This document shows positions 3,332 through 33,802 of a stretch of DNA of 43,900 bases, piece by piece. The notes under the pieces were generated by a model that saw only the letters and a program-made list of their open reading frames with translations, had not been told where the DNA came from and did not search any database. Position 1 is the stretch's first letter; every line of letters starts with the position of its first letter. This stretch comes from Clostridium sp. CAG:448. GTDB lineage: Bacteria > Bacillota > Clostridia > Oscillospirales > CAG-272. A program made the translations under genes and the position numbers. The stretch covers positions 1 through 43,900 of the forward strand of contig FR890455.1 in the NCBI GenBank assembly GCA_000433415.1. Reading direction: 5' to 3'.

Positions 3332-3419
3332 GACGAAAAACGGAATCGAAATCCGGCGGGGATCGGCGTTCACCGCCGCGGACGGAGAAAAATGCGGAGT
3401 AGAAAGTAAAACAGTGAAG

Positions 3420-5807: not shown

Positions 5808-5935
5808 AACAGAAAGGCTTTGTTCCCGCATGCGCAGTGAACTGCAGAGAAAGGGTTCGGGCAAAAAATAAAGGAAATATACTGGCGCACAGTTACTGCA
5901 CGCCGCTATATAATTTTTGAATGGAGGAATCCGCA

Positions 5936-18595: not shown

Positions 18596-18624
18596 TTGAC
18601 AAAGGCGGGGCGGTGTGGTATGAT
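18596..18624 (+). promoter_or_regulatory. Candidate sigma-A promoter of the seven-gene transporter operon
   Basis: TTGACA (18596-18601), a 17-nt spacer, then TGgTATGAT (18619-18624). Confidence 0.6.
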
Positions 18625-18630
18625 ATAGCT

Positions 18631-19166: not shown

Positions 19167-22100
19167 ATGAAGAAAACGAAATTCCAAAGATTCGCGGCGT
19201 GCCTTCTCGCGCTTACAATGCTTCTGGGATCCGCTCTGGTTTCTGTCAGTGCGGCAACCGGGACATCTGATGCGTCGAGCGGTTCGTCCGTTACGGACAA
19301 GAGTCTGCAGGAAATCCGCGAGTTGCTCAATGCGATTTCGTACAGTGAGTACGTTCTGTCCGACGTATTTACCACGACTGGATACGCAAAGGAGCAGATT
19401 GTCATCGATGTGCTGGCAGATATTGATACGAGCAGAGACGGAAACTGCTACATTGACGATGAAAAGGTCAAAGAGCTGACCGCGGGCGGAAATGCAGATA
19501 AGGTGAATGACTATGCACATAAGTCCACCCTTTACCGTGACGCAGACGGCAATGAGATTGAGAGCCTTTATACGCCGTCCAACGGTTCCGTGTCTTGGAA
19601 GGTGGAACTCAGCGAAAGCGCCAAGTATGCCATCGTGATCGAATATTACGCGGTGACGGGCAAGGCGACGGCTGTGGAACGTGTTTTCAAAATCAATGAT
19701 AAAGTGCCTTTTTCCGAGGCGCGTTACCTGACGCTGAACAAAAACTGGGTGACAGAGCCTGTCCAGTATCAGTTGCGTGACGGCGAAACGGCTGAAAGTG
19801 CGAAAGCGGATTTGGAATCGATCGGTTTGACCGTTACCAAGGATGAGAGCGGAAATCTTTACTGTGCAATTCCGGAGGTTTGGGATGAAGAACTTGTCAA
19901 GGCGTGTGAAGATCGCGGCTTGCGCTTCTTCTTGACTGACGTTACCAATAATGAGATCCGCAGTGCCGCGGTGCAGGCGCCTGTGTGGACAAATTATTAT
20001 CTGCGCGATTCCAGCGGATACTATACAGATAACTTTGTTTTTGCCCTGGAGAAGGGAACCAACATCCTGACCCTGGAAGGCAAGAACGAACCCCTTGCAA
20101 TCAAATCCATTCGCCTGGTTCCGGTGGAAGAAACGCCGACCTATGATGAGTACATCAAGAATCTGGGGAGTGTGAAGAACAATGCCAACAGCACAGTGCG
20201 TCTGGAAGCGGAGTATCCCAATGCCACTTCCTCCAAGACCATTTATCCGACTGAGGACCGTTCCGATGCTGCGAACTCGCCGTCGGATGTTTCCCGCACG
20301 GTGATGAATACGCTGGGTGGTGAAAAATGGCAGACTGCCGGTCAGTATGTCGAGTACAACTTCCGCGTCAGCGGCTCGGGTATGTATGACCTGATTTCCC
20401 ATTTCCGCCAAAATATCCTGGACGGCATGTATGTGTGCCGCAGCCTGGAGATTTACAGCCATAACGTGGAAGAGGGAACTGCCGGCTACTACAACGGTGC
20501 ACCCTTTGAAGAAGCAAAGTCGTTGCGCTACAATTACAGTGCCAACTGGAATGTAACAAAACTGACAGACGGATCCACCGGGTCGGACGGTAAGACCCGC
20601 AACTACCCAATCTACTTTGTGGGAACCGACGATAATAAGGATGCATATTACACCATCCGTTTTGTGGTTACGCTCGGCTCCATGGGTGATATTGTCCGCG
20701 AAGTACAGGAAATTTTGAATTCCGTCAACAATGACTATCTGAACATCCTTCGTCTGACCGGTGCAAACCCCAATACATACAACTCTTACGGATTCTCCCG
20801 CGTCATGCCGGATACCCTGATCGACATGATCGTACAGTCCAGAAGACTGGACAATTCCGAAAACAAGAACAATAAGAATTATCAGCCTGGACTTGCGGAA
20901 CGGTTGACCACCCTGGCAGGACAGAAATCCTCTAACGTTGGTACGCTGCAGCGGATCGCGGATCTGCTCAAGAAGATGGGAACCGACGAAGAAGAAATTC
21001 CCACGAACCTTGAAAACCTCAAGACCTATATCGGGACCCTGGGAACCTTCCTTTCGGACGCACAGACACAGCCGCTGCTTCTTGACTATATCCTGATTCG
21101 TCCTGCGGATTCTGCCGAAAAGATGCCACGCGGCAAGGCGGGATTCTTCCAGGCGATTGCGCACGAAGTCTCCGGCTTCTTCATGAGCTTTGTCCGTGAC
21201 TATAACAGCATGGGTTCCATGGACGAGGATGCGGACAAGAGCATTGAAGTATGGCTGGCATACGGACGTGACCAATCTCAGGTTATCCGTAACCTGATTA
21301 ACAATGACTTTACACCGAATACCGGTGTTGCGGTTGACCTGAAGCTGGTTGCGGCTGCAACTCTTCTGCCTTCCATTTTGTCTGGCTCCGGACCGGATGT
21401 TTATCTGGGGCTGGGACAGGCGGATGTTATCAACTACGCGATTCGTTCTGCACTGATCAATATTGATGACCGTGCGGATTTTGCTGAAGTGCGTGACAAC
21501 TTCAACGATGCAGCAATGCTGGTGCTTGGTATTGAAGATGCAGACCAGATCATGCATTACTACGGGCTGCCTGAAACGCAATCCTTTACCATGATGTTTG
21601 TCCGTGACGACGTGCTTGCAGACCTCGGTCTGGAAGTACCCAAGACATGGGACGATATTCTGGCGGCGGTTCCAGTGCTCCAGTCGCAGAAGATGGAAAT
21701 CGGTCTGACCACGGACTTCCAGATTTTCCTGTATCAGCGCAACGGTGAGCTGTTTGCGGATAACGGTATGAGAATCAACCTGGATTCGGTTGTGGGACTT
21801 TCTTCCTTCGAATATATGTGTAACCTGTTTACGCAGTATTCTTTCCCGTATACCTACAATGCGGCAAACCGTTTCCGTACCGGTGAAATGCCGATCATCA
21901 TCGGTGATTACACCGCTATGTACAACCAACTGAAGGTTTTTGCAACTGAAATCGAAGGCGCATGGGAATTCCTTCCGATGCCCGGTATCAAGCAGGAAGA
22001 CGGCAGTATCAACAATGTGTCGATTTCTTCCATTGCGGCTGTTGTCATGGTGTCCGGCGTTGAGGACAAAGACAGCGCTTGGGAGTATATGAAGTGGTAC

Positions 22101-22871
22101 ACCGGAAAGGATTGCCAGAGCGACTATACCAACGAGATGGTTGCAATCCTTGGTCCTTCCGCAAAGCACCCGACGGCGAATAAGTACGCGCTGGAGGATT
22201 TGCCCTGGACGACCTCGGAGCTGGCACAGGTGCAGGCACAGTTCAACAACCTCGCGGCAGTGCCGAACTATCCCGGTGCTTACATTATCGGTCGTTATAC
22301 CAACTTCGCATTCCTGTCCGCTTATAACGACAAAGCTGACCCTGCCGAATCCATTCTTTCTTACGTGCCGACCATCAACAAGGAAATTACACGTAAGCGG
22401 AACGAATTCAAGCTGGAAACCCTGGAGGCGGGCGAAACGCTTGCAAGCAAGCGTTTGAACCAGGCAACCGGTCTGCTCGATAAGATTGAGAAGAACAGCG
22501 ACTATAAGAGCGATTATGCAGAGGTAATCCGTGAGGCGAAGGCTGCAATCAAAGATCAGAACGAAAACGGTCTGATGATGGCGGCGGAAAAATTGCGCGG
22601 AATTCTGCGTGAACTGGATCCGAATTATCAGTATGTCGAATCTCATGCGAACGACGGTAATACCAATTATAAGAACAGTACTTATTGGAAGAATCTTGAA
22701 TCACTCATGGGCTACGATATGAATGATTTAAGCCTGACAAACAAAGAGAAGAAAAAGCTGAGAAAGTGCTACTACTACGAAGCCTACGATCTGACAGACG
22801 AGATGGCAACGCTTCTGCACTTTGCCGCTGAGTATATGGAAGACGCAGCAGCTGCGCTTTCCACATATTGA
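19167..22871 (+). CDS. Giant secreted ABC substrate-binding protein (family 1 core) with a roughly 690-aa N-terminal extension carrying two CBM-like modules, plus a C-terminal helical tail
   Basis: AGGAGG (19152-19157) precedes the ATG at 19167. Signal peptide MKKTKFQRFAACLLALTMLLGSALVSVSA. CBM-like segments include SWKVELSESAKYAIVIEYY... and RLEAEYPNATS...GEKWQTAGQYVEYNFRVSGSGMYDL. The binding-protein core starts near aa 691 (IEVWLAYGRDQSQVIRNLINNDFTPNTGVAVDLKLV...). The track ORF start at 18957 is an extension. Confidence 0.85.
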   Translation: MKKTKFQRFAACLLALTMLLGSALVSVSAATGTSDASSGSSVTDKSLQEIRELLNAISYSEYVLSDVFTTTGYAKEQIVIDVLADIDTSRDGNCYIDDEKVKELTAGGNADKVNDYAHKSTLYRDADGNEIESLYTPSNGSVSWKVELSESAKYAIVIEYYAVTGKATAVERVFKINDKVPFSEARYLTLNKNWVTEPVQYQLRDGETAESAKADLESIGLTVTKDESGNLYCAIPEVWDEELVKACEDRGLRFFLTDVTNNEIRSAAVQAPVWTNYYLRDSSGYYTDNFVFALEKGTNILTLEGKNEPLAIKSIRLVPVEETPTYDEYIKNLGSVKNNANSTVRLEAEYPNATSSKTIYPTEDRSDAANSPSDVSRTVMNTLGGEKWQTAGQYVEYNFRVSGSGMYDLISHFRQNILDGMYVCRSLEIYSHNVEEGTAGYYNGAPFEEAKSLRYNYSANWNVTKLTDGSTGSDGKTRNYPIYFVGTDDNKDAYYTIRFVVTLGSMGDIVREVQEILNSVNNDYLNILRLTGANPNTYNSYGFSRVMPDTLIDMIVQSRRLDNSENKNNKNYQPGLAERLTTLAGQKSSNVGTLQRIADLLKKMGTDEEEIPTNLENLKTYIGTLGTFLSDAQTQPLLLDYILIRPADSAEKMPRGKAGFFQAIAHEVSGFFMSFVRDYNSMGSMDEDADKSIEVWLAYGRDQSQVIRNLINNDFTPNTGVAVDLKLVAAATLLPSILSGSGPDVYLGLGQADVINYAIRSALINIDDRADFAEVRDNFNDAAMLVLGIEDADQIMHYYGLPETQSFTMMFVRDDVLADLGLEVPKTWDDILAAVPVLQSQKMEIGLTTDFQIFLYQRNGELFADNGMRINLDSVVGLSSFEYMCNLFTQYSFPYTYNAANRFRTGEMPIIIGDYTAMYNQLKVFATEIEGAWEFLPMPGIKQEDGSINNVSISSIAAVVMVSGVEDKDSAWEYMKWYTGKDCQSDYTNEMVAILGPSAKHPTANKYALEDLPWTTSELAQVQAQFNNLAAVPNYPGAYIIGRYTNFAFLSAYNDKADPAESILSYVPTINKEITRKRNEFKLETLEAGETLASKRLNQATGLLDKIEKNSDYKSDYAEVIREAKAAIKDQNENGLMMAAEKLRGILRELDPNYQYVESHANDGNTNYKNSTYWKNLESLMGYDMNDLSLTNKEKKKLRKCYYYEAYDLTDEMATLLHFAAEYMEDAAAALSTY

Positions 22872-22909: not shown

Positions 22910-23857
22910 ATGTCAGAAAGAACGGCAACTAAAAAAGCTGTTTCGCGGAAAGATATGACCAAGGCGCAGTGGACATGGAAAGAGATGAAGCGCAACTGGG
23001 TTGCCTATGTAATGGTTGCCCCGTACATGATTCTCTTTACGCTGTTTACCGTTGTGCCGGTGGTGCTTTCCATCTTCATCAGCTTTACGGACTTCAATAT
23101 GCTGGAATGGCCGAACTTCGTTTTTCTGGACAACTACATCACGTTGTTCTTTGATGACGATATTTTCCTCATTGCAGTCAAAAACACTTTCATTTTCGCG
23201 GTGATTGTCGGACCTGCCTCCTACCTGATGTCTTACATGGTGGCGTGGTTCATCAATGAATTGCCGCCTAAGATCCGGGCGGTTGTAACCCTGATCTTCT
23301 ACGCGCCTTCCATTTCCGGTCAGGTTTACTTGATTTGGGGTACCTTGTTCTCGTCCGACTCCTATGGTTGGGTCAACGCAACATTGCTCAAACTTGGACT
23401 GATTGACAAGGAGATTTTGTTCTTCCAGGATGAAAAATACGTAATGCCTCTGTGTATTATCGTTTCGCTTTGGACCTCGTTGGGTACTTCCTTCCTGGCG
23501 TTTATCGCAGGTTTGCAGGGGGTTGACCGCTCGCTTTACGAAGCGGGTGCGGTGGACGGTGTCAAGAACCGTTGGCAGGAACTTTGGTATATTACGTTGC
23601 CGTCTATGAAGCCGCAGTTGATGTTTGGTGCGGTGATGTCCATTACCGGTTCGTTTGGATTTGGCGGTATCGTTACCGCGCTTGCCGGTTTCCCGTCCGT
23701 CAACTACTGTGCACATACCATCATGCACCATCTGGAAGACTACGGCGGACAGCGATATGAAATCGGTTATTCTTCTACCATCGCGGTCATTCTGTTTGCC
23801 ATTATGATGGGCGCGAACATGTTGGTGAAGAAAATACTCTCGAAGGTAGGTACGTAA
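22910..23857 (+). CDS. Carbohydrate ABC transporter permease (MalF/LplB-like), pair 1
   Basis: Six-TM MetI-like pattern with EAA loop LYEAGAVDGVKNRWQELWYITLPSMKP. RBS AAAGGAG. Confidence 0.9.
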   Translation: MSERTATKKAVSRKDMTKAQWTWKEMKRNWVAYVMVAPYMILFTLFTVVPVVLSIFISFTDFNMLEWPNFVFLDNYITLFFDDDIFLIAVKNTFIFAVIVGPASYLMSYMVAWFINELPPKIRAVVTLIFYAPSISGQVYLIWGTLFSSDSYGWVNATLLKLGLIDKEILFFQDEKYVMPLCIIVSLWTSLGTSFLAFIAGLQGVDRSLYEAGAVDGVKNRWQELWYITLPSMKPQLMFGAVMSITGSFGFGGIVTALAGFPSVNYCAHTIMHHLEDYGGQRYEIGYSSTIAVILFAIMMGANMLVKKILSKVGT

Positions 23858-23860
23858 GTT

Positions 23861-24733
23861 ATGGCGAAATTAAGAACAAGAAAACATAAAGTCGTACTTG
23901 CCCGTTCCGCGGGGGGCGATGCATTTATCACTGTAATTTTGGTCATCCTGGGCGCATTTATGTTCCTGCCGATGCTGTATGTGTTCATGCAGGCGCTGAA
24001 GCCGTTGGATGAGTTGTGGATGTACCCGCCACGCTTCTACGTGATGAGCCCGACCTTATCCAACTTTACGGATTTGTTCCAGCTCATGAACACTTCCTGG
24101 GTTCCGTTTTCCCGTTACGTTTTCAATACCGTTCTGACGTCCGTTGCCGGTACTTTCGGACACCTGTTCCTTGCATCTCTTGCGGCATACTGCATGGCAA
24201 AGATCAAGTTTCCCGGGCGCAACGCCATGTTCTGGACGGTACAGACCTCACTGATGTTCAACTCCACCGTTACGACCATTACCTCCTTCATTCTGATGTC
24301 GGCTTTGGGTTGGTTGGATACCTACTGGGCGCTGATCGTTCCTGCGTGGTGTAGTTCCTTGGGACTTTATCTGATGAAGCAGTTCATGGATACCAACATC
24401 ACCGATGCGGTTTTGGAGTCCGCGCGGCTTGACGGCGCGAGAGAATTGCGCATTTATTGGACCATTGCGATGCCCATGGTTAAGCCTGCATGGCTGACCC
24501 TGATCATTTACTGCTTCCAGAACCTGTGGAATGCGGGAGCTTCTATGTACATTTACTCCGAGCAGTTGAAATCCTTCAACTATGCCATCGGTCAGATTAC
24601 CGCGGGCGGTATCAAGCGTGCCGGTGCGTCGGCAGCCGCTTCTGTGGTCATGATGATGGTGCCGATCATTGTGTTTGTTATTTCACAGTCCAACATCATT
24701 GAGACCATGGGCTCCAGTGGTATGAAGGACTGA
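23861..24733 (+). CDS. Carbohydrate ABC transporter permease (MalG/LplC-like), pair 1
   Basis: EAA loop VLESARLDGARELRIYWTIAMPMVKP. It starts 3 nt after the upstream stop. Confidence 0.9.
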   Translation: MAKLRTRKHKVVLARSAGGDAFITVILVILGAFMFLPMLYVFMQALKPLDELWMYPPRFYVMSPTLSNFTDLFQLMNTSWVPFSRYVFNTVLTSVAGTFGHLFLASLAAYCMAKIKFPGRNAMFWTVQTSLMFNSTVTTITSFILMSALGWLDTYWALIVPAWCSSLGLYLMKQFMDTNITDAVLESARLDGARELRIYWTIAMPMVKPAWLTLIIYCFQNLWNAGASMYIYSEQLKSFNYAIGQITAGGIKRAGASAAASVVMMMVPIIVFVISQSNIIETMGSSGMKD

Positions 24734-24749: not shown

Positions 24750-26915
24750 ATGAAAAAACTGACCGCAATATTTTGTGTCGTCTTCGTTGCGCTCTTGCTC
24801 CTGACGGCGTTTCCGCTCCGTGCCAGTGCCGGCTCGGCATATCAGACTTATACATACTCCATTGACGGCTATGCCCTGTATTCGCCGGATGCGTATACGG
24901 CTGTAACCACTGTGGACTCGGAGTATATGGGATTGCTGGATAAGTCATTGTTCGCAAATCCTGTTGCGATTGATAATCCCGGCGATATGGTTACGGATGA
25001 CGACGGCAATGTTTACATCGCCGATACCGGTAATAACCGGATCGTTGTTTTGGACCGTTACTATAAGGTGCGTTTTGTAATTACCGAATTCCGGAACGAT
25101 CAGGGCGTTGCGGATGCACTGACGGCGCCGCAGGGTGTGTTCGTCACCGACGAAAACATTTGGGTTTGCGACTCAGGTGCCAACCGGATCGTGGCATTCG
25201 ACCGGGACGGTAACTTTGACCGCCTTGTCGAGGAACCGGAAAGTGAATTGTTTGAATCCGATTCCGTTTATAAGCCGGTTGCGATGGCAGTCGACCAATA
25301 CGGCAGACTGTATGTCGTTTCTTCTACGACTTATCAGGGAATCATTGTCATGACCAATGACGGTGAGTTTAACGGTTTTATCGGTACACAGGCAGTGGCG
25401 CTTTCCGCTTGGGAAATCCTTTGGCGTCGTTTCCAAACCGACGCGCAGAAGGAATATGCCGATGAAGTTGTCGCAACCGAGTTCAATAACATTACGATCA
25501 ACAAAGACGGTTTCATTTATGTAACCACCTCTTCCATTAAGGATTCCTCTGTAGAGAGTGCAATCAAGGGAAAAGATAAGAAGGGTACATACATGCCGGT
25601 CAAGATGCTGAATGCCAACGGCGATGAAATCATGCGCCGGAACGGCTTCTGGGCTCCTGCCGGAGAGATTGACTATGCTACGGAATCCACTGCGGAAATC
25701 CGCGGCGTATCCACAATCATTGACGTTGCTGTCGGTGAAGAAGGCACGTGGTCCATCATTGACGAAAAGAGAAACCGTGTTTATACCTACGATTTTGACG
25801 GAAACCTGCTTTACGCTTTCGGCGACAGCGGCACCATGTTGGGCGGTCTTGCCAGTGTGGAGGCAATCACGTATCAGGGCGATACCATGCTGATACTGGA
25901 TAAGACCAACGACAACATTACGGTGTTCAACCGTACCGAGTACGGTGATATTCTGATTCAGGCATTGGCGGCAGAAAACACACAGGATTACGATCTTGCC
26001 ATCAACCTGTGGACGGAAGTTCTGAAGCGTAACAACAACTTCGATGCGGCATACGTCGGTATCGGAGATGCGATGTACCGGAACGGACAGTATCAGGAAT
26101 CGCTTGCCTACTATGAGGCTGCGTATGAAACGACCGGCTGGTCCAAGTCCTATAAGGAAATCCGTACAGAGTGGATGTCAACCTACTTCTTGCTGTTCGT
26201 TGTCATCATTGTTGCCGTCATTGTTGGTGTGGTTCTCTTGTTCAAGACAATGGGAAAGATCAACAAGAAAGCAACTCACAACGGCAGAGCCCGCAAAACC
26301 TACGGACAGGAAGTTGCGTATGCGTTCCACGTTATCGCACATCCGTTTGACGGTTTTTGGGATCTGAAGCATGAGCACAGAGGTTCTGTGCGCGGTGCAC
26401 TGACCATTATTGCCGTTACCGTTCTTGTGTTCTTCTATCAGGCAATCGGTTCCGGTTATCTGGTCAATCCGTATGGTGGTTACACTACGATTTTCACGCA
26501 GTTGCTTGCTGTCCTGGTTCCTCTGTTCCTGTTCGTTGTGGCAAACTGGTGTCTGACCACCTTGTTTGACGGCGAAGGTAGCTTTAAGGATGTGTTCATC
26601 GCGGCAGGATACAGCCTGACACCGATCCCGCTGTTGGTTCTTCCTGCGACCATCTACTCCAACTTTGCAATCAGCACCGAGGTGGATATCATTTCCTTTG
26701 TGGGAACCTTGGCGTTTATCTGGATGGGAATTCTCCTGTTCTTCGGTACGCAGGTTACGCATGACTACGGTATCGGCGGAAATGTCCTTGCCATTCTGGG
26801 AACCGCTGTGGGTATGATCTTTATCATGTTCTTTGCAATTCTGTTTTCCACGCTTGTCGCAAAGCTGGTCAGCCTTGTGACCAACATTGTGGTGGAGTTG
26901 CAGTACAGAATGTAA
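24750..26915 (+). CDS. Membrane protein with a signal peptide, a six-bladed NHL-repeat propeller, a TPR-like segment, one TM helix and a C-terminal Yip1-like multi-TM domain
   Basis: NHL repeats include PGDMVTDDDGNVYIADTGNNRIVVLD and PQGVFVTDENIWVCDSGANRIVAFD. TPR-like segment AYVGIGDAMYRNGQYQESLAYYEAAYE. TM helix at aa 477-498. Yip1-like region HPFDGFWDL...FDGEGSFKDVFIAAGYSLTPIPLL. RBS GGGAGGG. Confidence 0.85.
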   Translation: MKKLTAIFCVVFVALLLLTAFPLRASAGSAYQTYTYSIDGYALYSPDAYTAVTTVDSEYMGLLDKSLFANPVAIDNPGDMVTDDDGNVYIADTGNNRIVVLDRYYKVRFVITEFRNDQGVADALTAPQGVFVTDENIWVCDSGANRIVAFDRDGNFDRLVEEPESELFESDSVYKPVAMAVDQYGRLYVVSSTTYQGIIVMTNDGEFNGFIGTQAVALSAWEILWRRFQTDAQKEYADEVVATEFNNITINKDGFIYVTTSSIKDSSVESAIKGKDKKGTYMPVKMLNANGDEIMRRNGFWAPAGEIDYATESTAEIRGVSTIIDVAVGEEGTWSIIDEKRNRVYTYDFDGNLLYAFGDSGTMLGGLASVEAITYQGDTMLILDKTNDNITVFNRTEYGDILIQALAAENTQDYDLAINLWTEVLKRNNNFDAAYVGIGDAMYRNGQYQESLAYYEAAYETTGWSKSYKEIRTEWMSTYFLLFVVIIVAVIVGVVLLFKTMGKINKKATHNGRARKTYGQEVAYAFHVIAHPFDGFWDLKHEHRGSVRGALTIIAVTVLVFFYQAIGSGYLVNPYGGYTTIFTQLLAVLVPLFLFVVANWCLTTLFDGEGSFKDVFIAAGYSLTPIPLLVLPATIYSNFAISTEVDIISFVGTLAFIWMGILLFFGTQVTHDYGIGGNVLAILGTAVGMIFIMFFAILFSTLVAKLVSLVTNIVVELQYRM

Positions 26916-26936: not shown

Positions 26937-29900
26937 ATGAAATCAGGTTACAGAATAATTTCAATGTTCTTGACTCTTTTGTTACTGTTCGGCGCACTGG
27001 AGTGTCTGGTGATTACGACGTATGCGGATGAGGAAACGACAACGGACGGCGGAACCACCGGCGGAGACGAGGATACGGTTACAACGGTTGACTATACCGT
27101 TACTCCCTATGTTTCCGAAGCAGACAAACTGGCAACCATGACGCATTATCCGCATGCGGATAAAAAGGTAAAGAGCGAAAACGGTAAGACCTATAGCTAT
27201 CAGCTTTACGTGGATGAATATTCCGGTGAGGTTGCGGAGGTCTACTGCGACGAGAATGGGAACATTATCGATACGCTGTTTACCAACCCGTACGATGTAG
27301 GTGTGTCCACCGCGTCCACCTCCATCAAACAGCAGATCCTGTCGCAGATCACCGTAAAATATACGGATAACGATAACGACAAGTACTTCTACAGCTATGA
27401 GCAGGCTGCAATGCGCAACCAGATCAAGGTGAAGAAGATCAAAAACGGTATCCGCGTGGAATATACCATCGGACGTGAGGAAGCACGTTTGCTGCTCCCC
27501 AGACTGATTACCAATGAGCGTTTTGAAACGATGATTCTGGCGCCGATGCGTGAGGCACTGGGCGAGAATTCCTTCATGTACAAGAAATTCACTGCATACT
27601 ATCTGGAAAAGAATCTGGATAAGATTACTTCCCAGCGTGCAAGAGAAGAAATGATCGCAGTGTTTCCGATCGTGGAGAAGTACGCCGTTTGGGTCTTTGA
27701 CCCGACTGCATCCGACGCCGAGAAGAACCTTTGTGAGGAATTGATCAAGGCGAACTGCCCGGATTATTCCTACGAGGAATTGGACACCGACCATGAAATG
27801 ACGCAGTATCAGGGTGAAGAAGATAATCCACCGCTGTTTAAGATGGCGTTGGAGTATACGCTGGATGCCAACGGTATGACTGTTCGTTTGCCTGCAAACG
27901 GTATCCGGTTCAATGAGTCCCTGTATCAGTTGACCTATGTGGAGGTTCTTCCTTACATGGGAGCGGGCAATAACCTGTATAACGGGTATACGATGTACCC
28001 GGACGGTTCAGGCGCGCTGTTCGCATTTGCCGATCCGTCTCTGAAAACCAAAATTTCGGTTACAGGTAAGGTTTACGGATCCGACTACGCTTACCATACC
28101 ATTTCCGGTACCTATCAGCAGGCGATCCGCTATCCGGTGTACGGTATTCAGGAGGATACGACCTATGTGAACCTGGAGCAGGAGGATGGTACAAGTACCA
28201 TTATTTCCGGTTCTGTGGTGAAGAAAATGGAAGACATGACAACCGTTCCAGATGCGTTGCGCGCGTATAAGCAGCTTTTGAACGCAAGTGCCAATGCAAC
28301 GGGAGATTCGCAGGTCACACGGACTGATATTACCAAGAGCCGCGCATTCCTCGCCATCATTGAAGAAGGAGATGCTTTGGCATCAATCTCTACATACACG
28401 GACGCAACCGAGAGCGAATATAGCGCAATGCGGATGCAGTTCAATCCCCGCCCGAAGGACTCCTACAACATTCAGGATTCCATCTCGGTTGGTTCCAACT
28501 CTACTTGGACCGTGGTCAGTAACCGAAAGTATGTCGGAAACTACAAGATCCGTTATGTCCTGTGTACAGATGAGAAAACCGCCAAGGCGGAGAATCTGGA
28601 TAAGTACTATGACGCAAGCTGGTTTGGCATGGCAGTCGCGTACCGGGATTACCTGGAGCGCGAAGGTGCTCTGACCCGTTTGACCGCGGAGGATATTGAA
28701 GACGATATTCCGCTGTACATCGAATCGTTCGGTACGCTGGAAACGACCGAGAAAATCCTGTCCGTCCCGGTCAATGTAATGACCCCTCTGACGACCTTTG
28801 AGAATGTCAAAACCATGTATGACGAATTGAGCAAAGCCGGTATCAAGAATATCAATTTCAAGCTGACCGGTTTTGCAAATGGCGGTATGTACTCCAATGT
28901 GCCGTACGATCTGAAGTTTGAGAATTCGGTAGGCGGCAACAAGGGATTCCAGGAACTCTTGGATTACGCAAAAGAAGTATCCGAGCAGACCGGAAAGCAC
29001 CTGGGCATTTATCCTGATTTTGATTTTGCATACGTTGTGAATGACACATTGTTTGATGCCACCGTGCTCAAACTGCATGCGTCAAAGACCATTGACGACC
29101 GTTATGCAAGTAAAAAATACTATGTTGCAACCAAGCAGAAGTATCAGGGCAGATACGAAATGGTGCTCTCGCCGGCGTATATGAGCCACTTCTACAAGCA
29201 CTTGATTGCAAATTATCTGGGTAATTTCAACAATGTAACCGGTATTTCCGTTGGTTCGCTTGGTTCCGCTCTGAACTCTGACTTTGATGAGGATGAGCCT
29301 TACAACCGCGAGGACGCAAAGGAATTCACAATCAGCGCCTTTGAGTATCTGAATAAGGCGGGACTGAGTGTGATGACCGAAGGCGGCAACTCCTATACCT
29401 GGAAATATGCGGATCATATCCTGGGAATTTCCCTGGATTCCAGCCGTTATAACAAGGCAAGTTGCTCCATTCCGTTTGTCGGTGTCATTCTGCACGGTTA
29501 CAAACAGTTCTCCGACGATCCGCTCAACATGGAGGGCGATATCCAGTACGCCATGTTGAAGATTCTGGAAAACGGAGCTTCTCCGTATTTCACACTTTCC
29601 TATCAGAACACACAGAAGCTCAAGGACTTCACCTATCTGAGCAACTACTATTCCGTGCGTTATGATATCTGGAAAGAGGATATGATTGACAAGTACAACG
29701 AGCTGAACGCTGTGTTGCGGGATGTACAGCTCAATCTGATCACCAAGCACGAATTTATCAACGGTACCCGTGTACCTGACGTAGATGAATTGGAATCGGA
29801 TATCGACCAGGCGATGAGCGAATATCGCGAAAGAGAACTCGCCGAAGTTGAGGAAGCGGAAAAGCTGCTCCTGCAGAAGGTGGGTAATGCCCGTAAGAAG

Positions 29901-31670
29901 ATCAGAGAGGTAGAAGATGCCCTCGCAAAGGCAGTGACAGCGACAGGTTCCGCAAGAAACAATGCGCAGGTCAACAAGTTTACGGTCGATGACAAGATGG
30001 CAAATTACAAGTCTGCCATTCTTGAGTATGTCGATGCGGTTGCAAAGGGTTGGGATAAACTGGCGGATTCCACGGATGAGACAGACGCGGCAAATTATCA
30101 GGCGTATGTCAACACCACAAAATCCGTTACCAAGGAACGCTACCGTCTGATCGTCGCTTTGGCACAGGTCGGAAACTATGCGAAGATTGCTGAGGATTCC
30201 ATGAATTCCGTTATTGAGCTTTTGGATGTCAGCCGTCAGGCAGTCGAGGATGTCAAGAACGGTGTCAAGGATATTGAGGACGAAGCAGTTAAACAGACAA
30301 TCATCAGTGATTCCGAGCGCCTGTACAATCTGTCTGCACTGTACCTGAACGGTCTTGCAAACGGAGAAAAGGGCTACTATGAGGTGAAGGCACGCTACCA
30401 GGATGCATACTTTGATCAGTTGCTTGCCGACGGCACCAGACTTTATGATCTGAATGCGGAGTATGAAAAGGTTGTGCAGTATATGACTGCGGTTGCCGCA
30501 TTGGATAGTCTTCTGAGCGCAAAGAAGAATTTGACTGCTGCTCTTGCTGCAATTGAAAAGGCAACGGCTTTGGTGGAAACCCGCCGGAAGGCAGTTGACG
30601 AGGCGGCAGATGATGCAGCCAAAGAGAAAGCGGAAGCCGCACTGCAGACTGCAAAAGAAGATCTTGCAACGCAGGAAAGCAACCGCGACGCACTGAATGT
30701 GCTGATTGAAAAGCTGATTGCGGCCGGTACCGAGGCGGGTTACGATCTGGATGCCATCGAAAAGGCAGAAGACCTGAAGATCAAAGCAGACGTACCGTAT
30801 GTGTACACCACTTCAAACAGTGAAGCTCTGCGTCAGTATGTTGTATACAGCTTGGGCAGTAAACTGAATGCCGAGTTGGGTATTGCAGGCGAGATCAACG
30901 CTTATGCCGAAAAATATGTACTTGCAGAGGCTTACATTGCCGCAAAGAAAGCTTACGATACGGCTGTTAAGGATGAGGCAAAGGCAAAGCAGGCATATGA
31001 GAAGGATCAGACCGATGCACTGAAGGCTGCTTACGAAGCTGCACAGAAGGTAAAGGCTGATTGCAAGGCGGTGATGGATGCATACCTTGCAAAGGATGCG
31101 GCGCTTGAAAAGGTCACCAATGTAAATCAGTACGTAACCGTAGGCGACTATGTGAAGTTTGTCTATGAACAGAGCAACCTCTCCTATGCGTTGATCAGTG
31201 CACGAAACAAACTCAAAAAGGAAATCGCCGATCAGCTCGGAACTGACTTCACAGAGGAATCCCTTAATATTCCTGCCAAGGTGCAGGCAACCGACTTCTT
31301 CAGCTTTACTTATTGCATCACGGAAAATAAGGAATTGGCAGCCAAGGCGTTTGAAGAAAGCGTACAGGGCGTACTTGATTTCTGTTCCAGTGTGGAACTC
31401 CCTGCCGAGTACACGGTTACACGCAAGGACATCACTGACAGAATGTCAAACAACAATTCCGGTACAAAAGAAGAAGAAACCAAGACTGACTTTGATAAGT
31501 ACGCGACCAGCGGCAATAAGATTGTTGCCGTGACGTACGGTAATGATGATGGCAGTGTCAAGAAGGTCATCATTATCAACTACAACAACTTCGCGGTAAA
31601 GGTAGAGTACAATGGCAAGCTGTACACCATTGCGAAATTCGGTTATGAGATTATTCTCGGCAATCATTGA
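26937..31670 (+). CDS. 1577-aa secreted or membrane-anchored protein. It has a large N-terminal domain of unknown function (possibly the family annotated DUF5696, glycosidase-like), a roughly 490-aa alpha-helical insertion, and a short beta-rich C-terminus.
   Basis: RBS GAGGAGAGGAG. N-terminal hydrophobic signal or anchor IISMFLTLLLLFGAL. Central segments read PLYIESFGTLE..., LTGFANGGMY, GIYPDFDFAYV and VMTEGGNSYTW...IPFVGVILHGY. An A/E/K/D-rich helical region spans aa ~948-1435. The C-terminus reads KIVAVTYGNDDGSVKKVIIINYNNFAVKVEYNGKLYTI. Confidence 0.85.
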   Translation: MKSGYRIISMFLTLLLLFGALECLVITTYADEETTTDGGTTGGDEDTVTTVDYTVTPYVSEADKLATMTHYPHADKKVKSENGKTYSYQLYVDEYSGEVAEVYCDENGNIIDTLFTNPYDVGVSTASTSIKQQILSQITVKYTDNDNDKYFYSYEQAAMRNQIKVKKIKNGIRVEYTIGREEARLLLPRLITNERFETMILAPMREALGENSFMYKKFTAYYLEKNLDKITSQRAREEMIAVFPIVEKYAVWVFDPTASDAEKNLCEELIKANCPDYSYEELDTDHEMTQYQGEEDNPPLFKMALEYTLDANGMTVRLPANGIRFNESLYQLTYVEVLPYMGAGNNLYNGYTMYPDGSGALFAFADPSLKTKISVTGKVYGSDYAYHTISGTYQQAIRYPVYGIQEDTTYVNLEQEDGTSTIISGSVVKKMEDMTTVPDALRAYKQLLNASANATGDSQVTRTDITKSRAFLAIIEEGDALASISTYTDATESEYSAMRMQFNPRPKDSYNIQDSISVGSNSTWTVVSNRKYVGNYKIRYVLCTDEKTAKAENLDKYYDASWFGMAVAYRDYLEREGALTRLTAEDIEDDIPLYIESFGTLETTEKILSVPVNVMTPLTTFENVKTMYDELSKAGIKNINFKLTGFANGGMYSNVPYDLKFENSVGGNKGFQELLDYAKEVSEQTGKHLGIYPDFDFAYVVNDTLFDATVLKLHASKTIDDRYASKKYYVATKQKYQGRYEMVLSPAYMSHFYKHLIANYLGNFNNVTGISVGSLGSALNSDFDEDEPYNREDAKEFTISAFEYLNKAGLSVMTEGGNSYTWKYADHILGISLDSSRYNKASCSIPFVGVILHGYKQFSDDPLNMEGDIQYAMLKILENGASPYFTLSYQNTQKLKDFTYLSNYYSVRYDIWKEDMIDKYNELNAVLRDVQLNLITKHEFINGTRVPDVDELESDIDQAMSEYRERELAEVEEAEKLLLQKVGNARKKIREVEDALAKAVTATGSARNNAQVNKFTVDDKMANYKSAILEYVDAVAKGWDKLADSTDETDAANYQAYVNTTKSVTKERYRLIVALAQVGNYAKIAEDSMNSVIELLDVSRQAVEDVKNGVKDIEDEAVKQTIISDSERLYNLSALYLNGLANGEKGYYEVKARYQDAYFDQLLADGTRLYDLNAEYEKVVQYMTAVAALDSLLSAKKNLTAALAAIEKATALVETRRKAVDEAADDAAKEKAEAALQTAKEDLATQESNRDALNVLIEKLIAAGTEAGYDLDAIEKAEDLKIKADVPYVYTTSNSEALRQYVVYSLGSKLNAELGIAGEINAYAEKYVLAEAYIAAKKAYDTAVKDEAKAKQAYEKDQTDALKAAYEAAQKVKADCKAVMDAYLAKDAALEKVTNVNQYVTVGDYVKFVYEQSNLSYALISARNKLKKEIADQLGTDFTEESLNIPAKVQATDFFSFTYCITENKELAAKAFEESVQGVLDFCSSVELPAEYTVTRKDITDRMSNNNSGTKEEETKTDFDKYATSGNKIVAVTYGNDDGSVKKVIIINYNNFAVKVEYNGKLYTIAKFGYEIILGNH

Positions 31671-31684
31671 TGGGAGGTGTGAAG

Positions 31685-32674
31685 ATGACAAACCAAGCAA
31701 AAGCACAAACAACAGTGACTCCCGGCAAGACGGCACCGAAAAAGCGTAAGATTGCCTCTTTGGACAAACGAAAAGCACGGATGGGGTGGGTATTCGTCCT
31801 GCCCTTCGTGATCGGATTTGTCTGCGTTTATCTGCCGATTATCTTTGAGTCCATTCAACTCAGTTTTTACAAAATTTCCATTGTGGGTGCCGGCGGCGGC
31901 TTTGAAAAAGAGTTCGTTGGCTGGGACAACTACAGTTGGGCACTCGGAACCGACCCGGACTTCGTCCGCACGTTGGTGGAGGGTCTGAAGGAACTGGCAT
32001 TCGATATTCCCGCGATCATCATTTTCTCCCTGTTCATGGCAGTGTTGCTGAACCAGAAAATGATCGGACGTGCGGCATTTCGTGCAATCTTCTTCATCCC
32101 GGTTATTCTTTCCACCGGTATCATGGAGTCCATTGACGCACAGAACATTCTGTCCAGTTACATGGATTCTACCTCCGGTATCGACGACGGTTCGGGAACC
32201 AGCGCGGCGACAGAAATCGTTTCGGCGATCGATATTGAGCGGCTGTTCTCAAACATGAAGGTCGGAGAAGGCATGGTTGAATACGTTGTAAACATGATCA
32301 ACGATATTTACGACATTGTTAACCGTTCCGGCGTACAGATGCTGATCTTCCTTGCCGGCTTGCAGTCTATCTCCCCTGCCATTTATGAGGCGTGCAAGAT
32401 TGACGGCGCAACCTCGTGGGAAACCTTCTGGAAGATTACATTCCCGATGATCAGCCCGATGATTCTTGTAAACGGTATTTATACCATTATCGACTCCTTT
32501 ACGACCGATTCCAATACAGTTATGACCTACATTGCGTCTGTGTATAAACAGAACGACGGTGACGTCCGCAGTTCTGCAATGGCGTGGATGTACTTCCTGA
32601 TTGTCATTGCCATCATCGCCGTAGTCGGAGCAATCTTCTCTGCATTTGTCTTCTATCAGAGAAGGGAATCTTAA
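31685..32674 (+). CDS. Carbohydrate ABC transporter permease (MalF-like), pair 2
   Basis: GGGAGG (31672-31677) precedes the ATG at 31685. EAA loop IYEACKIDGATSWETFWKITFPMISP. Confidence 0.9.
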   Translation: MTNQAKAQTTVTPGKTAPKKRKIASLDKRKARMGWVFVLPFVIGFVCVYLPIIFESIQLSFYKISIVGAGGGFEKEFVGWDNYSWALGTDPDFVRTLVEGLKELAFDIPAIIIFSLFMAVLLNQKMIGRAAFRAIFFIPVILSTGIMESIDAQNILSSYMDSTSGIDDGSGTSAATEIVSAIDIERLFSNMKVGEGMVEYVVNMINDIYDIVNRSGVQMLIFLAGLQSISPAIYEACKIDGATSWETFWKITFPMISPMILVNGIYTIIDSFTTDSNTVMTYIASVYKQNDGDVRSSAMAWMYFLIVIAIIAVVGAIFSAFVFYQRRES

Positions 32675-32692: not shown

Positions 32693-33802
32693 ATGGAGAA
32701 AACAAATCAAGCGGTTGCCGCAAACGAAAGCGGCAGACCGATTATTAAAGAGTCAAAGCGTTCCATCAAGATGGACTTTGACCGCACACCGCTGAAGGAT
32801 CGGCTGAAGGCGAAATTCCTGAACATGTATTTTGTAACCAGAGTGATCTGGTACATCTTCCGCCTGGTTCTTCTGATCGGTATTTCCTATATCGTTCTGT
32901 ATCCCTTCTTTACAAAGATTGCCGGTTCCTTTATGGCACCGGAGGACTTCGTAGATGTAACGGTTCGTTTGATCCCGAAGCATTGGACGTTGGATATTTA
33001 CAAGGCGATTATCACAGAGCTGGATTATTTTGAGGCATTTCTGAATTCCTTCATTTTGTCCGGTATGGTCGCTTTGATGCAGACGTTTATCTGTTCTTTG
33101 ATCGGCTACGGCTTGGCAAAGTTCCGTTTCAAGGGAAATAAGCTGGTATTCATGCTCGTAATCCTGACCATGGTGGTCCCGCACCAGACCCTGCAGCTTT
33201 CCATGTTCATGAATTTCCGCTTCTTCGATGTGTTCGGCATTCTGTCCTTCCTGAGCGGAGGTGTGACAACCGGTATTGAGGGGTTGGATGGCATCCTCTC
33301 CAAGATCCATTTGCTGAATTTCCCGAACGGGTTGAATCTGACAAAGACTTATGCACCGTTGATTATTCTGTCCATGACCGGACTTGCATTTAAGAACGGT
33401 TTGTACGTCTTCATGATGCGTCAGTTCTTTACGGGAATTCCGGAATCTTTGGAGGAATCGGCATATATCGACGGATCGGGAACGTTCCGTACCTTCCTGA
33501 CCATCATTCTGCCGATGTCTATTCCGATGATGATTACGATTTTCCTGTTCGCTTTCTGTTGGCAGTGGACCGACGACTTCTACACGTCTTTGTTCTACAT
33601 CAACCAGCAGGTGAAATTGTTGACCGGCATTGTGGAGATCCCGCCGAGTCTGAAGTTGGATTATGCGGGCAAGTCGTTGTATGAAGCGGCGATTCGGAAT
33701 ACCTGCGGTATTATGATTATTCTGCCTTTGATTATCCTCTATATCTTCTGCCAGAACTTCCTGGTACAGGGTATTGAGCGTTCGGGTATCACCGGCGAAT
33801 AA
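32693..33802 (+). CDS. Carbohydrate ABC transporter permease (MalG-like, enlarged external loops), pair 2
   Basis: RBS AGGAGGAG. EAA loop LEESAYIDGSGTFRTFLTIILPMSIP. Confidence 0.9.
   Translation: MEKTNQAVAANESGRPIIKESKRSIKMDFDRTPLKDRLKAKFLNMYFVTRVIWYIFRLVLLIGISYIVLYPFFTKIAGSFMAPEDFVDVTVRLIPKHWTLDIYKAIITELDYFEAFLNSFILSGMVALMQTFICSLIGYGLAKFRFKGNKLVFMLVILTMVVPHQTLQLSMFMNFRFFDVFGILSFLSGGVTTGIEGLDGILSKIHLLNFPNGLNLTKTYAPLIILSMTGLAFKNGLYVFMMRQFFTGIPESLEESAYIDGSGTFRTFLTIILPMSIPMMITIFLFAFCWQWTDDFYTSLFYINQQVKLLTGIVEIPPSLKLDYAGKSLYEAAIRNTCGIMIILPLIILYIFCQNFLVQGIERSGITGE

Follow-up and report, generated by a model that had tools for sequence, protein, structure and literature searches.

A conserved importer-type gene cassette of Clostridia and Paenibacillus encodes a putative accessory membrane protein with an NHL propeller, TPR-like hairpins and a Yip1 domain

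A gene in the window (43,900 nucleotides of contig FR890455.1 from Clostridium sp. CAG:448, the whole stretch of DNA that was analysed) encodes a protein in which an NHL beta-propeller and TPR-like hairpins, both predicted to lie outside the cell, are joined to a Yip1-type membrane domain within a conserved seven-gene cassette. This protein may be an accessory subunit, non-catalytic and dedicated to a multi-component ABC machine for carbohydrate import that the cassette as a whole encodes, a reading to which we assign a probability of about one half based on the architecture and topology, the tight operon, the synteny, the spread across lineages, the fission of the gene, the carbohydrate-related partner proteins and the precedent of YknW from Bacillus subtilis. 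We infer all of the physical contacts of the protein, its scaffold role and the substrate of the cassette.

The seven-gene cassette

The features of the cassette are given with the basis of each assignment in brackets.

18596..18624, +, putative promoter TTGACA-17-TATGAT with TG upstream, followed by a leader of ~540 nt (11/12 consensus match)
19167..22871, +, giant extracytoplasmic SBP, 1234 aa (SBP_bac_1, profile vs PDB)
22910..23857, +, permease 1, MalF-type, 315 aa (BPD_transp_1)
23861..24733, +, permease 2, MalG-type, 290 aa (BPD_transp_1, 41 bits)
24750..26915, +, NHL-TPR-TM-Yip1 fusion protein, 721 aa (ATG start)
26937..31670, +, DUF5696 protein, 1577 aa (PF18952, 429 bits)
31667..32674, +, permease 3, MalF-type, 335 aa (BPD_transp_1, 39 bits)
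32693..33802, +, permease 4, MalG-type, 369 aa, the last conserved gene of the cassette (BPD_transp_1, 39 bits)

The operon is tight, with intergenic gaps of -4 to 38 nt (the stop of the DUF5696 gene and the start of permease 3 overlap by 4 nt), and an ortholog locus of 83% identity (L001) has conserved the promoter-like block along with parts of the leader. EAA-type loops are present in the translations of permease 1 (YEAGAVDG...ITLP), permease 2 (ESARLDGARELRIYWTIAMP), permease 3 (YEACKIDG...ITFP) and permease 4 (ESAYIDGSGTFRTFLTIILP), and permease 1 is 54-97% identical across loci. With a family-1 SBP and BPD_transp_1 permeases that carry EAA loops, as in CUT1 importers, the cassette is by sequence a probable system of this type.

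Across a synteny survey of 109 loci, a MalG-type permease lies directly upstream of the NHL-TPR-Yip1 gene in 89/89 loci, and the SBP plus two permeases precede it in all 57 loci with enough upstream flank (57/57). DUF5696 is immediately downstream in 91/92 loci (90/92, plus L021 by Pfam) and is followed by the MalF- and MalG-type permeases in 46/48; the complete cassette, in the order giant SBP, permease pair, NHL-TPR-Yip1, DUF5696 and second permease pair, is present at 65 loci. This order persists where the protein is only ~25-30% identical to that of the window, while the flanks beyond the cassette change completely between loci, and the lack of conservation outside indicates that the seven genes form a functional unit. 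The position between two permease pairs given in the preliminary description, which had been made from the window alone, is borne out by BPD_transp_1 matches on both sides, and the tie to ABC permeases is far stronger than could be seen there; absent from that description is DUF5696, the invariant partner, whose fold is GH129-like (see below). The reading as a generic membrane protein that shares an operon with the transporter by coincidence, functionally unlinked to it, has nothing in its favor but a single exception, L075, and is effectively refuted by synteny held across distant lineages and at such low identity while the flanks change. The L075 locus has the first permease pair and then the fused gene, with neither DUF5696 nor the second pair, such that contact with DUF5696 may not be obligatory, or the contig may be chimeric.

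No ABC_tran gene occurs in the cassette at any mapped locus, and the only ABC ATPases of the window are those of an upstream Opp-type operon. In the Firmicutes, the ATPase of CUT1 importers is commonly shared and encoded elsewhere (MsmX/MsmK), so the missing ATPase is no argument against a role in transport. The cassette likewise contains no MFP or MacB-type gene, and Rfam and tRNA scans of the window returned nothing. A literature search on DUF5696 and on bacterial Yip1/NHL-ABC proteins found no published description of the cassette.

Domain architecture and predicted topology

A GGGAGG Shine-Dalgarno sequence 7-8 nt 5' of the ATG provides the gene with a strong ribosome-binding site, and the encoded protein is divided into the following parts.

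24750..24830, +, signal peptide, aa 1-27, predicted cleavage between ASA and GS (sequence, hydropathy)
24831..25937, +, six-bladed NHL beta-propeller, aa 28-396, predicted extracytoplasmic (Pfam NHL and SGL, AF2, Foldseek)
25938..26129, +, two TPR-like helical hairpins, aa 397-460 (Pfam TPR_2, AF2)
26130..26324, +, long helix aa 461-510, including TM1 at aa 480-498, then the start of a basic loop (AF2, hydropathy)
26325..26912, +, Yip1 domain, aa 526-696, five TM helices, with a C-terminal helix extension (PF04893, hydropathy, AF2)

The signal peptide consists of MKK, a hydrophobic core (aa 4-22; AF2 places a helix at aa 2-19) and A25-S26-A27 followed by G28, and an N-terminal hydrophobic region is shared by 107/110 homologs, in agreement with the preliminary description. 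The NHL, TPR and Yip1 domains proposed there each score above their Pfam cut-offs: NHL (PF01436) with 39.8 bits against 20, in two stretches; TPR_2 marginally, with 28.4 against 27, while TPR_16 remains below its cut-off (31.1 against 32.7); and Yip1 (PF04893) with 58.2 against 28.6, over aa 526-696 and model positions 1-171 of 173. Sequence comparison with the PDB matches the propeller to the Pizza and PknD NHL proteins (1rwi; E ~1e-14) and the helical region to consensus-TPR proteins (E 1e-6).

The AF2 model (mean pLDDT 95, pTM 0.88) contains beta strands across aa 33-395, which are read as six four-stranded blades, the number first proposed, and Foldseek likens the propeller to the NHL domains of TRIM71, Brat and Thin (E ~1e-14; target-normalised TM-scores 0.73-0.79, or 0.72-0.79 with TRIM2 included). 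The full-length protein returned propeller matches alone, leaving the Yip1 part uninformed by Foldseek. A conserved helical insertion (aa ~213-245) interrupts the propeller, and four antiparallel helices (aa 397-410, 414-427, 432-444 and 448-457) form the two hairpins of the TPR-like region that had been recognized from sequence. The ectodomain as a whole (aa 28-476) is acidic, with a net charge of -15 family-wide, and a whole-chain pTM of 0.88 suggests that ectodomain and membrane part may form a rigid unit in the model.

It appears very unlikely that the propeller is an enzyme, such as a lyase, an esterase or a lactonase of the SGL/SMP-30 type, acting on the substrate prior to import with Yip1 as a mere anchor. 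The Pfam SGL match is just over its cut-off (29.1 against 26.3 bits), there are weak matches to ScyF/ScyE-type and phytase-like propellers, and virginiamycin B lyase is among the lower-ranked Foldseek matches. However, the SGL match is confined to aa 70-165 (model positions 131-225 of 246), which amounts to two blades and reflects the shared repeat, the NCBIfam matches are far below threshold (51 against 350 bits), and in structure the propeller is best matched by NHL domains that are not enzymes. Further, the conserved propeller residues across the 110 homologs are essentially structural NHL motif positions, the invariant ones falling on the P-x-D / Y-x-x-D / N-x-R repeat, with no catalytic-looking cluster among them beyond these positions, and a simple anchor would have no need of a conserved five-TM Yip1 domain that can be encoded separately.

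The membrane part follows the order outlined in the preliminary description, a single TM helix (aa 480-498; hydropathy peak 3.57), a basic loop (aa 499-548, with 10 K/R) and five further hydrophobic helices within aa 549-697, where AF2 has helices across aa 518-720. In the 110 aligned sequences the loop after TM1 has a mean of 10.6 K/R and a net charge of +6, and from this positive-inside count the propeller and TPR hairpins are predicted to lie outside the membrane, tethered to the Yip1 core, as had been proposed. The strongest conservation of the Yip1 domain, HPFDGFWDLKxExRGS and NWCLTTLxDGEG, is located on the predicted cytoplasmic face. If the role were that of a scaffold outside the cell and nothing more, these motifs would be left unexplained, and their placement hints at an additional cytoplasmic or regulatory contact.

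The same motifs bear on a role as sensor or regulator, in which the propeller/TPR part would detect substrate or the loaded SBP and the Yip1 motifs would gate the complex, recruit a trans-encoded ATPase or allocate it between the permease pairs. The predicted cytoplasmic conservation, the presence of two permease pairs with no ATPase of their own and the effect of YknW on how its transporter oligomerizes or assembles (PMC4338810) speak for such a role. It is nevertheless considered quite unlikely, as Pfam identifies no recognizable signalling output domain, the topology of the short loops is drawn from hydropathy and the positive-inside rule alone, and the idea overlaps the scaffold model, from which it is inseparable in silico.

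Family size and gene fission

The family comprises 1383 clusters at 50% identity (E<=1e-30) and is found at 598 or more metagenome loci. NCBI records label its proteins 'YIP1 family protein' without an assigned function; NCBIfam has no model for this protein, the giant SBP or the DUF5696 protein. The preliminary description regarded the architecture as unusual, which it is not, and held that its reading would suffer if the architecture proved to be common with a function already assigned; the architecture is common, but no function is attached to it. In an alignment of 110 family members, from 150 listed representatives of the 50%-identity clusters, conservation extends over the full length in 110/110 (28-52% identity), which argues against a chance pattern. 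Informative extra domains such as CBMs were sought in the longer members, where only additional NHL repeats or nothing recognizable occurs.

Hosts of the cassette are MAGs of gut and rumen Clostridia (uncultured Clostridia/Oscillospiraceae), one Spirochaetaceae MAG and cultured Paenibacillus (P. spongiae and P. xylanexedens). In Paenibacillus, the spirochaete and some of the Clostridia, the protein is split into an NHL-TPR-TM protein with a basic tail and a Yip1-only protein (52.8-61.9 bits to PF04893) whose gene overlaps or abuts the first. The split point is exactly the cytoplasmic loop, where the genes at L013, L017, L020 and L023 end and start, and the pairs occupy the same slot of the cassette as the fused gene. 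The fusion described previously is thus real in the window but not essential to the system, and the split pairs of other lineages identify the protein of the window as a fusion of two parts that work together. This natural fission argues for a 1:1 complex of the NHL-TPR-TM and Yip1 halves, as predicted from gene structure.

Partner proteins

The proteins encoded around the fusion gene are carbohydrate-related. The giant SBP has an N-terminal signal or anchor, a CBM35-like region and a family-1 sugar SBP domain, with the C-terminal half matching SBP_bac_1 at 66 bits. The best PDB match of the SBP ortholog profile is Lin1841, a beta-1,2-glucooligosaccharide SBP (5ysb; E 1.3e-30), and a further match covers residues 407-520 of CITase 5x7g (E 6e-8), which we take to be its CBM35 region. 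No canonical lipobox is found in the giant SBPs. Tethering of an otherwise free SBP was considered as the main role of the propeller and rejected, since the giant SBPs have their own N-terminal signal or anchor sequences and do not require it.

A more direct part in substrate binding is conceivable, with the propeller as the primary glycan receptor that captures glycans in a lectin-like manner and hands them over to the SBP or the permeases. The ectodomain is acidic and outside, the context is one of carbohydrate uptake, the NHL propeller of PknD (PDB 1rwi) is thought to be a ligand sensor, and between the window and Paenibacillus the ectodomain is ~30% identical against ~56% for the permeases of the first pair, as would be expected if specificity varies. 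Yet the cassette already has a dedicated SBP with CBM-like modules, no conserved aromatic cluster was seen beyond the NHL motif positions and the longer family members gain NHL repeats with no recognizable CBM, leaving primary glycan reception unlikely.

The DUF5696 protein is composed of an N-terminal anchor, a GH129/GH36-like beta-sandwich and (beta/alpha)8 barrel, a long helical insertion and terminal beta strands. Its AF2 model is of moderate confidence (pLDDT 74), and the best Foldseek match of the model is the GH129 alpha-N-acetylgalactosaminidase NagBb (5wzn; E 3.7e-16, TMt 0.63), followed by GH36, GH97 and GH31. A single-sequence search of the PDB gave no match and the sequence profile matches GH129 entries weakly (E 0.03-0.15), so the fold assignment rests on AF2 and Foldseek. 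Sequence similarity to NagBb is below significance, and the invariant Asp residues (D356, D383, D508 and D782), which are located in low-confidence loops of the model, could not be placed against the catalytic residues of NagBb. Unlike NagBb, the DUF5696 protein is membrane-anchored, often with a long coiled-coil insertion. We infer an enzymatic activity for the protein, which would make it a putative surface hydrolase.

Comparison with known systems

The preliminary description considered bacterial Yip1-domain proteins to be essentially uncharacterized, which overlooks YknW of B. subtilis, a Yip1-family accessory of the YknXYZ ABC transporter that is reported to bind to this transporter and to influence how it assembles (PMC4887032, PMC4338810). 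No other characterized bacterial precedent was found in the literature searched. YknW and the protein of the window, likened here by family and published description, are both polytopic Yip1-family membrane proteins encoded in ABC-transporter operons. YknW is small and lacks an ectodomain, whereas the Yip1 core described here is fused to or paired with the NHL-TPR ectodomain. The partners of YknW are the MacB-type exporter YknYZ and the membrane fusion protein YknX, and YknWXYZ exports or protects against the SDP toxin; the present protein has as partners an SBP, a GH-like protein and importer permeases of the BPD_transp_1 family. Due to these dissimilar partners we do not class the protein with the orthologs of YknW but regard it as possibly similar in its way of working, and the analogy, from a MacB-type exporter with its membrane fusion protein to a type I importer, is a loose one. 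Within these bounds, the scaffold or hand-over role put forward earlier would fit the cassette context and the YknW precedent.

Membership in the Yip1 family is at the level of the domain only. Eukaryotic Yip1/YIPF proteins share the same Pfam family (PF04893) and five TM helices, the domain entering the membrane from the cytoplasm and ending with its C-terminus on the other side, as predicted here, but have a cytosolic N-terminal domain and act in ER-Golgi trafficking with Rab GTPases, in contrast to a large extracytoplasmic domain in an ABC importer context; to our knowledge, no Rab/Ypt GTPases are to be expected in bacteria. The ectodomain resembles that of PknD of Mycobacterium tuberculosis, which likewise displays a six-bladed NHL propeller outside the cell on a single TM helix and in which the propeller is believed to serve in binding or sensing, not in catalysis. 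In PknD the propeller is coupled to a cytoplasmic Ser/Thr kinase, while here it leads via the TPR hairpins to the Yip1 bundle, with no signalling domain.

The family-1 SBP and the MalF/MalG-type permeases with EAA loops are shared with CUT1 importers, such as MalEFGK2 and the sophorooligosaccharide system of Listeria (Lin1841). Departing from the canonical arrangement, the cassette has two permease pairs per one SBP (~1000-1250 aa, with CBM-like modules and no lipobox), and NHL-TPR-TM, Yip1 and DUF5696 are extra conserved components absent from canonical CUT1 systems.

Proposed role

In the accessory-subunit reading, cleavage of the signal peptide would leave the acidic propeller and the two TPR hairpins outside the cell, atop a long rigid helix running into TM1, with the basic loop at the cytoplasmic face and the five-TM Yip1 bundle next. 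The bundle would dock laterally onto the MalF/G-type permease heterodimers, as YknW does with YknXYZ, and the propeller/TPR platform would hold the anchored GH129-like DUF5696 protein, the giant CBM-bearing SBP or both above two translocators. In this way, the products of glycan breakdown at the surface could be captured and imported without diffusing off, with the ATPase supplied in trans.

The SusCD 'utilisome' of the Bacteroidota is a stable surface assembly of glycan-binding protein, glycoside hydrolase and transporter that channels products inward. A Gram-positive counterpart, in which Yip1 and NHL-TPR join the GH129-like hydrolase, the giant SBP and two ABC translocators such that cleavage, capture and import are mechanically coupled, is offered tentatively, as a possibility with the odds against it. 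SusCD is an outer-membrane TonB-dependent transporter of unrelated proteins in a different envelope, and the likeness is one of logic only. If this tentative picture were true, bacterial Yip1 proteins would be general organisers of ABC-transporter assemblies and the cassette would represent a new class of type I importer, one in which accessory subunits are obligatory.

In the textbook view, a type I ABC importer has three parts, namely a binding protein, a pair of permeases and a pair of ATPases. The cassette enlarges this plan to seven or eight genes, through a Yip1-type protein, a propeller/TPR module outside the cell, another pair of permeases and the GH129-like DUF5696, and in this form it is widespread, being abundant in Clostridia of the gut and rumen and found also in soil Paenibacillus. 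Should these form one complex, it would illustrate how Gram-positive glycan degraders couple surface hydrolysis with uptake, provide a first function for DUF5696 and for bacterial 'YIP1 family' proteins in very large number, and make a general principle of what has YknW as its single precedent. As the cassette occurs in culturable Paenibacillus, the question is directly open to genetics and biochemistry.

Genomic surroundings

Downstream of the cassette in the window are a GH84 gene and a Zn-ribbon ORF, neither of which is conserved with the cassette. A universal substrate read from the flanking genes was considered and rejected, as housekeeping genes flank the cassette in many of the Clostridia and the sets of glycoside hydrolases differ elsewhere. 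Neighbours in other genomes include GH26, GH5, GH8, GH10, GH94, PF10091 (Glycoamylase), GH3 and LacI/AraC regulators, and by locus the sets are GH26/GH5, GH8, GH10/GH5 and GH94/PF10091/GH3.

The NHL-Yip1 protein and its predicted topology

The open reading frame at 24750..26915 (+), with an ATG start immediately 3' of a ribosome-binding site (GGGAGG), encodes 721 aa exactly where the preliminary description had placed it, and the features reported there (signal peptide, NHL blades, TPR pair, TM helix, and Yip1 domain) were all recovered by Pfam, hydropathy, or AlphaFold2. The Pfam models for NHL (39.8 bits vs. a cut-off of 20), TPR_2 (28.4 vs. 27), and Yip1 (58.2 vs. 28.6; aa 526-696) each scored over their cut-offs, and by its domains the protein belongs to all three families. 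A sequence search of the PDB returned NHL propellers (PknD/Pizza and TRIM types) and consensus TPRs. An AlphaFold2 model (pTM 0.88, mean pLDDT 95), based on an alignment of 110 family members with 28-52% identity, consists of beta strands at aa 33-395, read as six blades, four TPR helices (aa 397-457), a single unbroken helix (461-510) that includes TM1, and the Yip1 helices (518-720). The modelled propeller matched the NHL domains of TRIM71, Brat, Thin, and TRIM2 in a Foldseek search of the PDB (E ~1e-14; target-normalised TM-scores, 0.72-0.79). A match to the Pfam SGL model (29.1 bits vs. a cut-off of 26.3) covers two blades and barely exceeds its cut-off, which would fit an enzymatic propeller, but the propeller residues invariant across the 110 sequences are structural NHL positions and this function is considered improbable.

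Sequence and hydropathy delineate an N-terminus with MKK, a hydrophobic core (aa 4-22), and then ASA|GS, followed by TM1 (480-498) and five more hydrophobic segments within 549-697. The N-terminal hydrophobic region is present in 107 of the 110 proteins. Averaged over this alignment, the loop after TM1 has 10.6 K/R and a net charge of +6, the 440-residue ectodomain has a net charge of -15, and the short loops are almost uncharged. By the positive-inside rule, these charges predict an extracytoplasmic propeller and TPR and a cytoplasmic basic loop, in agreement with the orientation proposed previously. Within Yip1, the two motifs with the highest conservation, HPFDGFWDLKxExRGS and NWCLTTLxDGEG, both lie on the predicted cytoplasmic face, where they could allow the protein to act as a gating or ATPase-recruiting regulator, a role considered unlikely.

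A conserved seven-gene cassette

The gene is the fourth of seven in a cassette with intergenic gaps of -4 to 38 nt.

Genes of the cassette in the window
19167-22871, +, giant SBP
22910-23857, +, MalF-type permease (pair 1)
23861-24733, +, MalG-type permease (pair 1)
24750-26915, +, NHL-Yip1 protein
26937-31670, +, DUF5696 protein, 1577 aa
31667-32674, +, second MalF-type permease
32693-33802, +, second MalG-type permease

The window proteins were mapped by tblastn onto 109 loci (20 species-representative genomes, nine exact-protein look-ups, and 80 metagenomes), a set that includes one contig 100% identical to the window (L030) and one cassette shared by two loci (L025/L026). The synteny was near-obligatory. 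A MalG-type permease was immediately 5' of the NHL-Yip1 gene in 89 of 89 loci with enough flank, and the SBP and two permeases preceded it in 57 of 57. DUF5696 was immediately 3' in 90 of 92 loci by tblastn, with two further permeases in 46 of 48, and the entire cassette was present in 65 loci. One exception by tblastn, L021, has a DUF5696 downstream that was detected by Pfam, and an SBP-like C-terminus (L021 2-430), not a permease, directly 5' of the fused gene. The other, L075, is a genuine exception to the order, possibly on a chimeric contig, in which the fused gene (2021-4186) follows the first permease pair without DUF5696 or the second pair and guaA, a polysaccharide deacetylase, and other unrelated genes lie 3' on the opposite strand. 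These variants are either real half-cassettes or rearrangements, or else assembly artefacts. Beyond the cassette, flanking genes differ between clades (e.g., alaS, mreC/PBP2/maf, aminotransferase, and ROK kinase). A coincidental location of the gene in a transporter operon was considered and is effectively excluded.

No ABC ATPase was present inside the cassette in any mapped locus, and the only ABC ATPases in the window are those of the upstream Opp-type operon. Firmicutes CUT1 sugar importers often share a trans-encoded MsmX/MsmK ATPase, and EAA-type coupling loops are retained in all four permeases. Identity between the window and Paenibacillus is uneven, from 54-59% for permease pair 1 and 35-43% for pair 2 to 31-33% for the SBP, 30-33% for the NHL-Yip1 protein, and 25-26% for DUF5696, as would be expected if the translocation core is conserved and the surface parts evolve faster.

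Taxonomic reach, abundance, and gene fission

All 20 genome loci were from MAGs, 19 belonging to the Clostridia, Oscillospiraceae, or 'Eubacteriales' (gut and rumen) and one to the Spirochaetaceae. With the spirochaete DUF5696 as query, homologs were found in cultured Paenibacillus and Cohnella, and context look-ups located the cassette in P. spongiae and P. xylanexedens, as well as around the most divergent DUF5696 homologs (23-26% identity). Its presence in cultured Paenibacillus makes the system directly testable.

A word-indexed search with the NHL-Yip1 protein returned >4000 matches, the best 120 of which were all ~712-724 aa with the same domains; the named entries among these 120 read 'YIP1 family protein [Clostridia bacterium]'. 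An exhaustive search of 50%-identity cluster representatives yielded 17,748 at E<=1e-3, the best 150 being nearly all full-length (~690-745 aa; 29-53% identity), and a single degenerate pattern recovered at least 598 confirmed relatives from the metagenome collection. With 1383 clusters at E<=1e-30, the architecture represents a large, established family and is no rarity. It had been foreseen that the architecture might prove common and already have an assigned function; the former holds, while no function was assigned in any source searched and no paper on the family was found in the literature searched. The proteins are thus abundant in databases, and the cassette is undescribed in the literature that could be searched.

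In loci L013-L018, L020, and L023-L026 the slot is occupied by two genes. The product of the first (486-525 aa) has the signal peptide, the NHL propeller, and the TPR pair and ends with a single TM helix plus a short basic tail, and the second (206-228 aa), whose start abuts or overlaps the stop of the first, encodes Yip1 only. Relative to the window protein, the split point falls exactly within the basic cytoplasmic loop. Fused forms outnumbered split forms 95 to 12 among the loci compared, in a sample biased to the fused query. The two forms make up a classic Rosetta-stone case, in which the Yip1 bundle cooperates with the ectodomain-plus-TM1 module, probably at a ratio of 1:1, and the covalent link between them is optional. 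Taken alone, the gene is less exotic than first thought, since it is common and combines two proteins that are usually neighbours.

Partner proteins and candidate substrates

The C-terminal half of the giant SBP alone matched SBP_bac_1 at 66 bits, and a profile of 17 orthologs matched the whole of Lin1841 (E 1.3e-30), a Listeria beta-1,2-glucooligosaccharide-binding (sophorooligosaccharide-binding) protein and the best PDB match of the family, and with many other sugar SBPs. An N-terminal segment resembles residues 407-520 of a cycloisomaltooligosaccharide glucanotransferase (E 6e-8), which we take to be its CBM35 insert. Neither the giant SBP of the window nor its orthologs have a canonical lipobox, and they possess an N-terminal signal or anchor sequence; ordinary ~455-aa SBPs encoded just 5' in two Paenibacillus loci (L023 1525-2898 and L024 1664-3025) have lipoboxes (VIAAC and LIAAC).

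For aa 1-1050 of DUF5696, a moderate AF2 model (pLDDT 74, pTM 0.64) had as its top PDB fold match the GH129 alpha-N-acetylgalactosaminidase NagBb (E 3.7e-16, TMt 0.63), followed by GH36, GH97, and GH31 enzymes. A sequence profile independently gave weak matches (E 0.03-0.15) to NagBb and to 5opq, a 3,6-anhydro-D-galactosidase and presumably the Zobellia GH129 enzyme. Residues D356, D383, D508, and D782 do not vary, even in orthologs of 25% identity, and because they are not alignable to known catalytic residues the enzymatic activity is regarded as putative. DUF5696 proteins span 735 to 1838 aa. The extra length of the window protein comes from an apparently all-helical, coiled-coil-like insertion (~aa 950-1520; nt ~29790-31500) between the catalytic barrel and the final ~50 beta-strand residues, which is absent from Paenibacillus and the L013 clade and may be a stalk spanning the cell wall.

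The informative flanks are carbohydrate-related, including GH26/GH5/LacI, an AraC-type regulator with GH8 and esterases, and GH5 or GH10. Flanking the cassette on a Logan contig (L028, SRR13871838; fused 668-aa form) are GH94, two PF10091 (Glycoamylase) proteins, LacI, GH35/42, and GH3; PF10091 presumably corresponds to GH144, and we take this set to resemble a beta-1,2-glucan utilisation locus. It is consistent with Lin1841 as the best PDB match of the SBP and suggests a candidate substrate, at least for the L028 version. The identities of the partners and the informative flanks thus mark the cassette as a system for carbohydrate import, probably with varying substrate specificity. The NHL-Yip1 protein might serve such a system as a lectin-like glycan receptor, which seems unlikely.

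Regions bordering the cassette in the window
18596-18624, near-consensus promoter, then a ~540-nt leader
33935-35284, +, 449-aa open reading frame directly 3' of the cassette, weak Zn-ribbon match only
35350-38397, +, GH84 beta-N-acetylglucosaminidase, 1015 aa, with GH20b and two F5/8 type C domains

The ~1.4 kb 5' of the giant SBP gene (17745-19166) has no convincing open reading frame and no Rfam match. The leader shares several conserved blocks with the ortholog locus L001, among them a perfect palindrome, ATTGC-ATA-GCAAT (about 18800-18835), and another block ~60 nt 5' of the ribosome-binding site; the conserved leader could be an operator or regulatory RNA. The Zn-ribbon and GH84 genes occur in the identical contig L030, are absent from the other cassette loci, and lie outside the conserved unit. 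The presence of GH84 hints that the window organism forages on host glycans.

A proposed accessory subunit

The cassette is a CUT1-type importer with five departures from the canonical form. It has a second permease pair, its giant CBM-bearing SBP lacks a lipobox, and it adds three proteins: the GH129-like DUF5696, the NHL-TPR-TM protein, and Yip1. A conserved machine of this kind would surprise specialists in ABC transporters and gut glycans. At about even odds (roughly 0.5), the NHL-Yip1 protein is a non-catalytic accessory or scaffold subunit of the importer. The Yip1 bundle would dock onto the permease heterodimers, and the rigid helix-TPR-propeller platform would hold the membrane-anchored DUF5696 enzyme and/or the giant SBP over the translocators; we infer all of these contacts, and the substrate hand-over itself. 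The precedent is YknW. This Yip1-family protein reportedly associates with YknXYZ and influences how the complex assembles or its oligomeric state (PMC4887032; PMC4338810). The NHL-Yip1 protein may work like YknW, but the cassette lacks the MacB-type exporter and the membrane fusion protein that define the YknW system, so the protein is not a YknW ortholog at the level of the system.

Two proteins of the window's Opp-type operon are unusually long, the SBP at 769 aa (5921-8230) and the second ATPase at 530 aa (12371-13963). Its OppC-type permease (9428-11371, +; OppC_N aa 45-97, BPD_transp_1 aa 452-642) contains an RCC1-repeat beta-propeller of ~270 aa (Pfam stretches within aa 107-379). This propeller separates the N-terminal TM region from the permease core and is presumably located in the first extracytoplasmic loop, making it a second, unrelated instance in the window of membrane components of an ABC importer that bear an external propeller.
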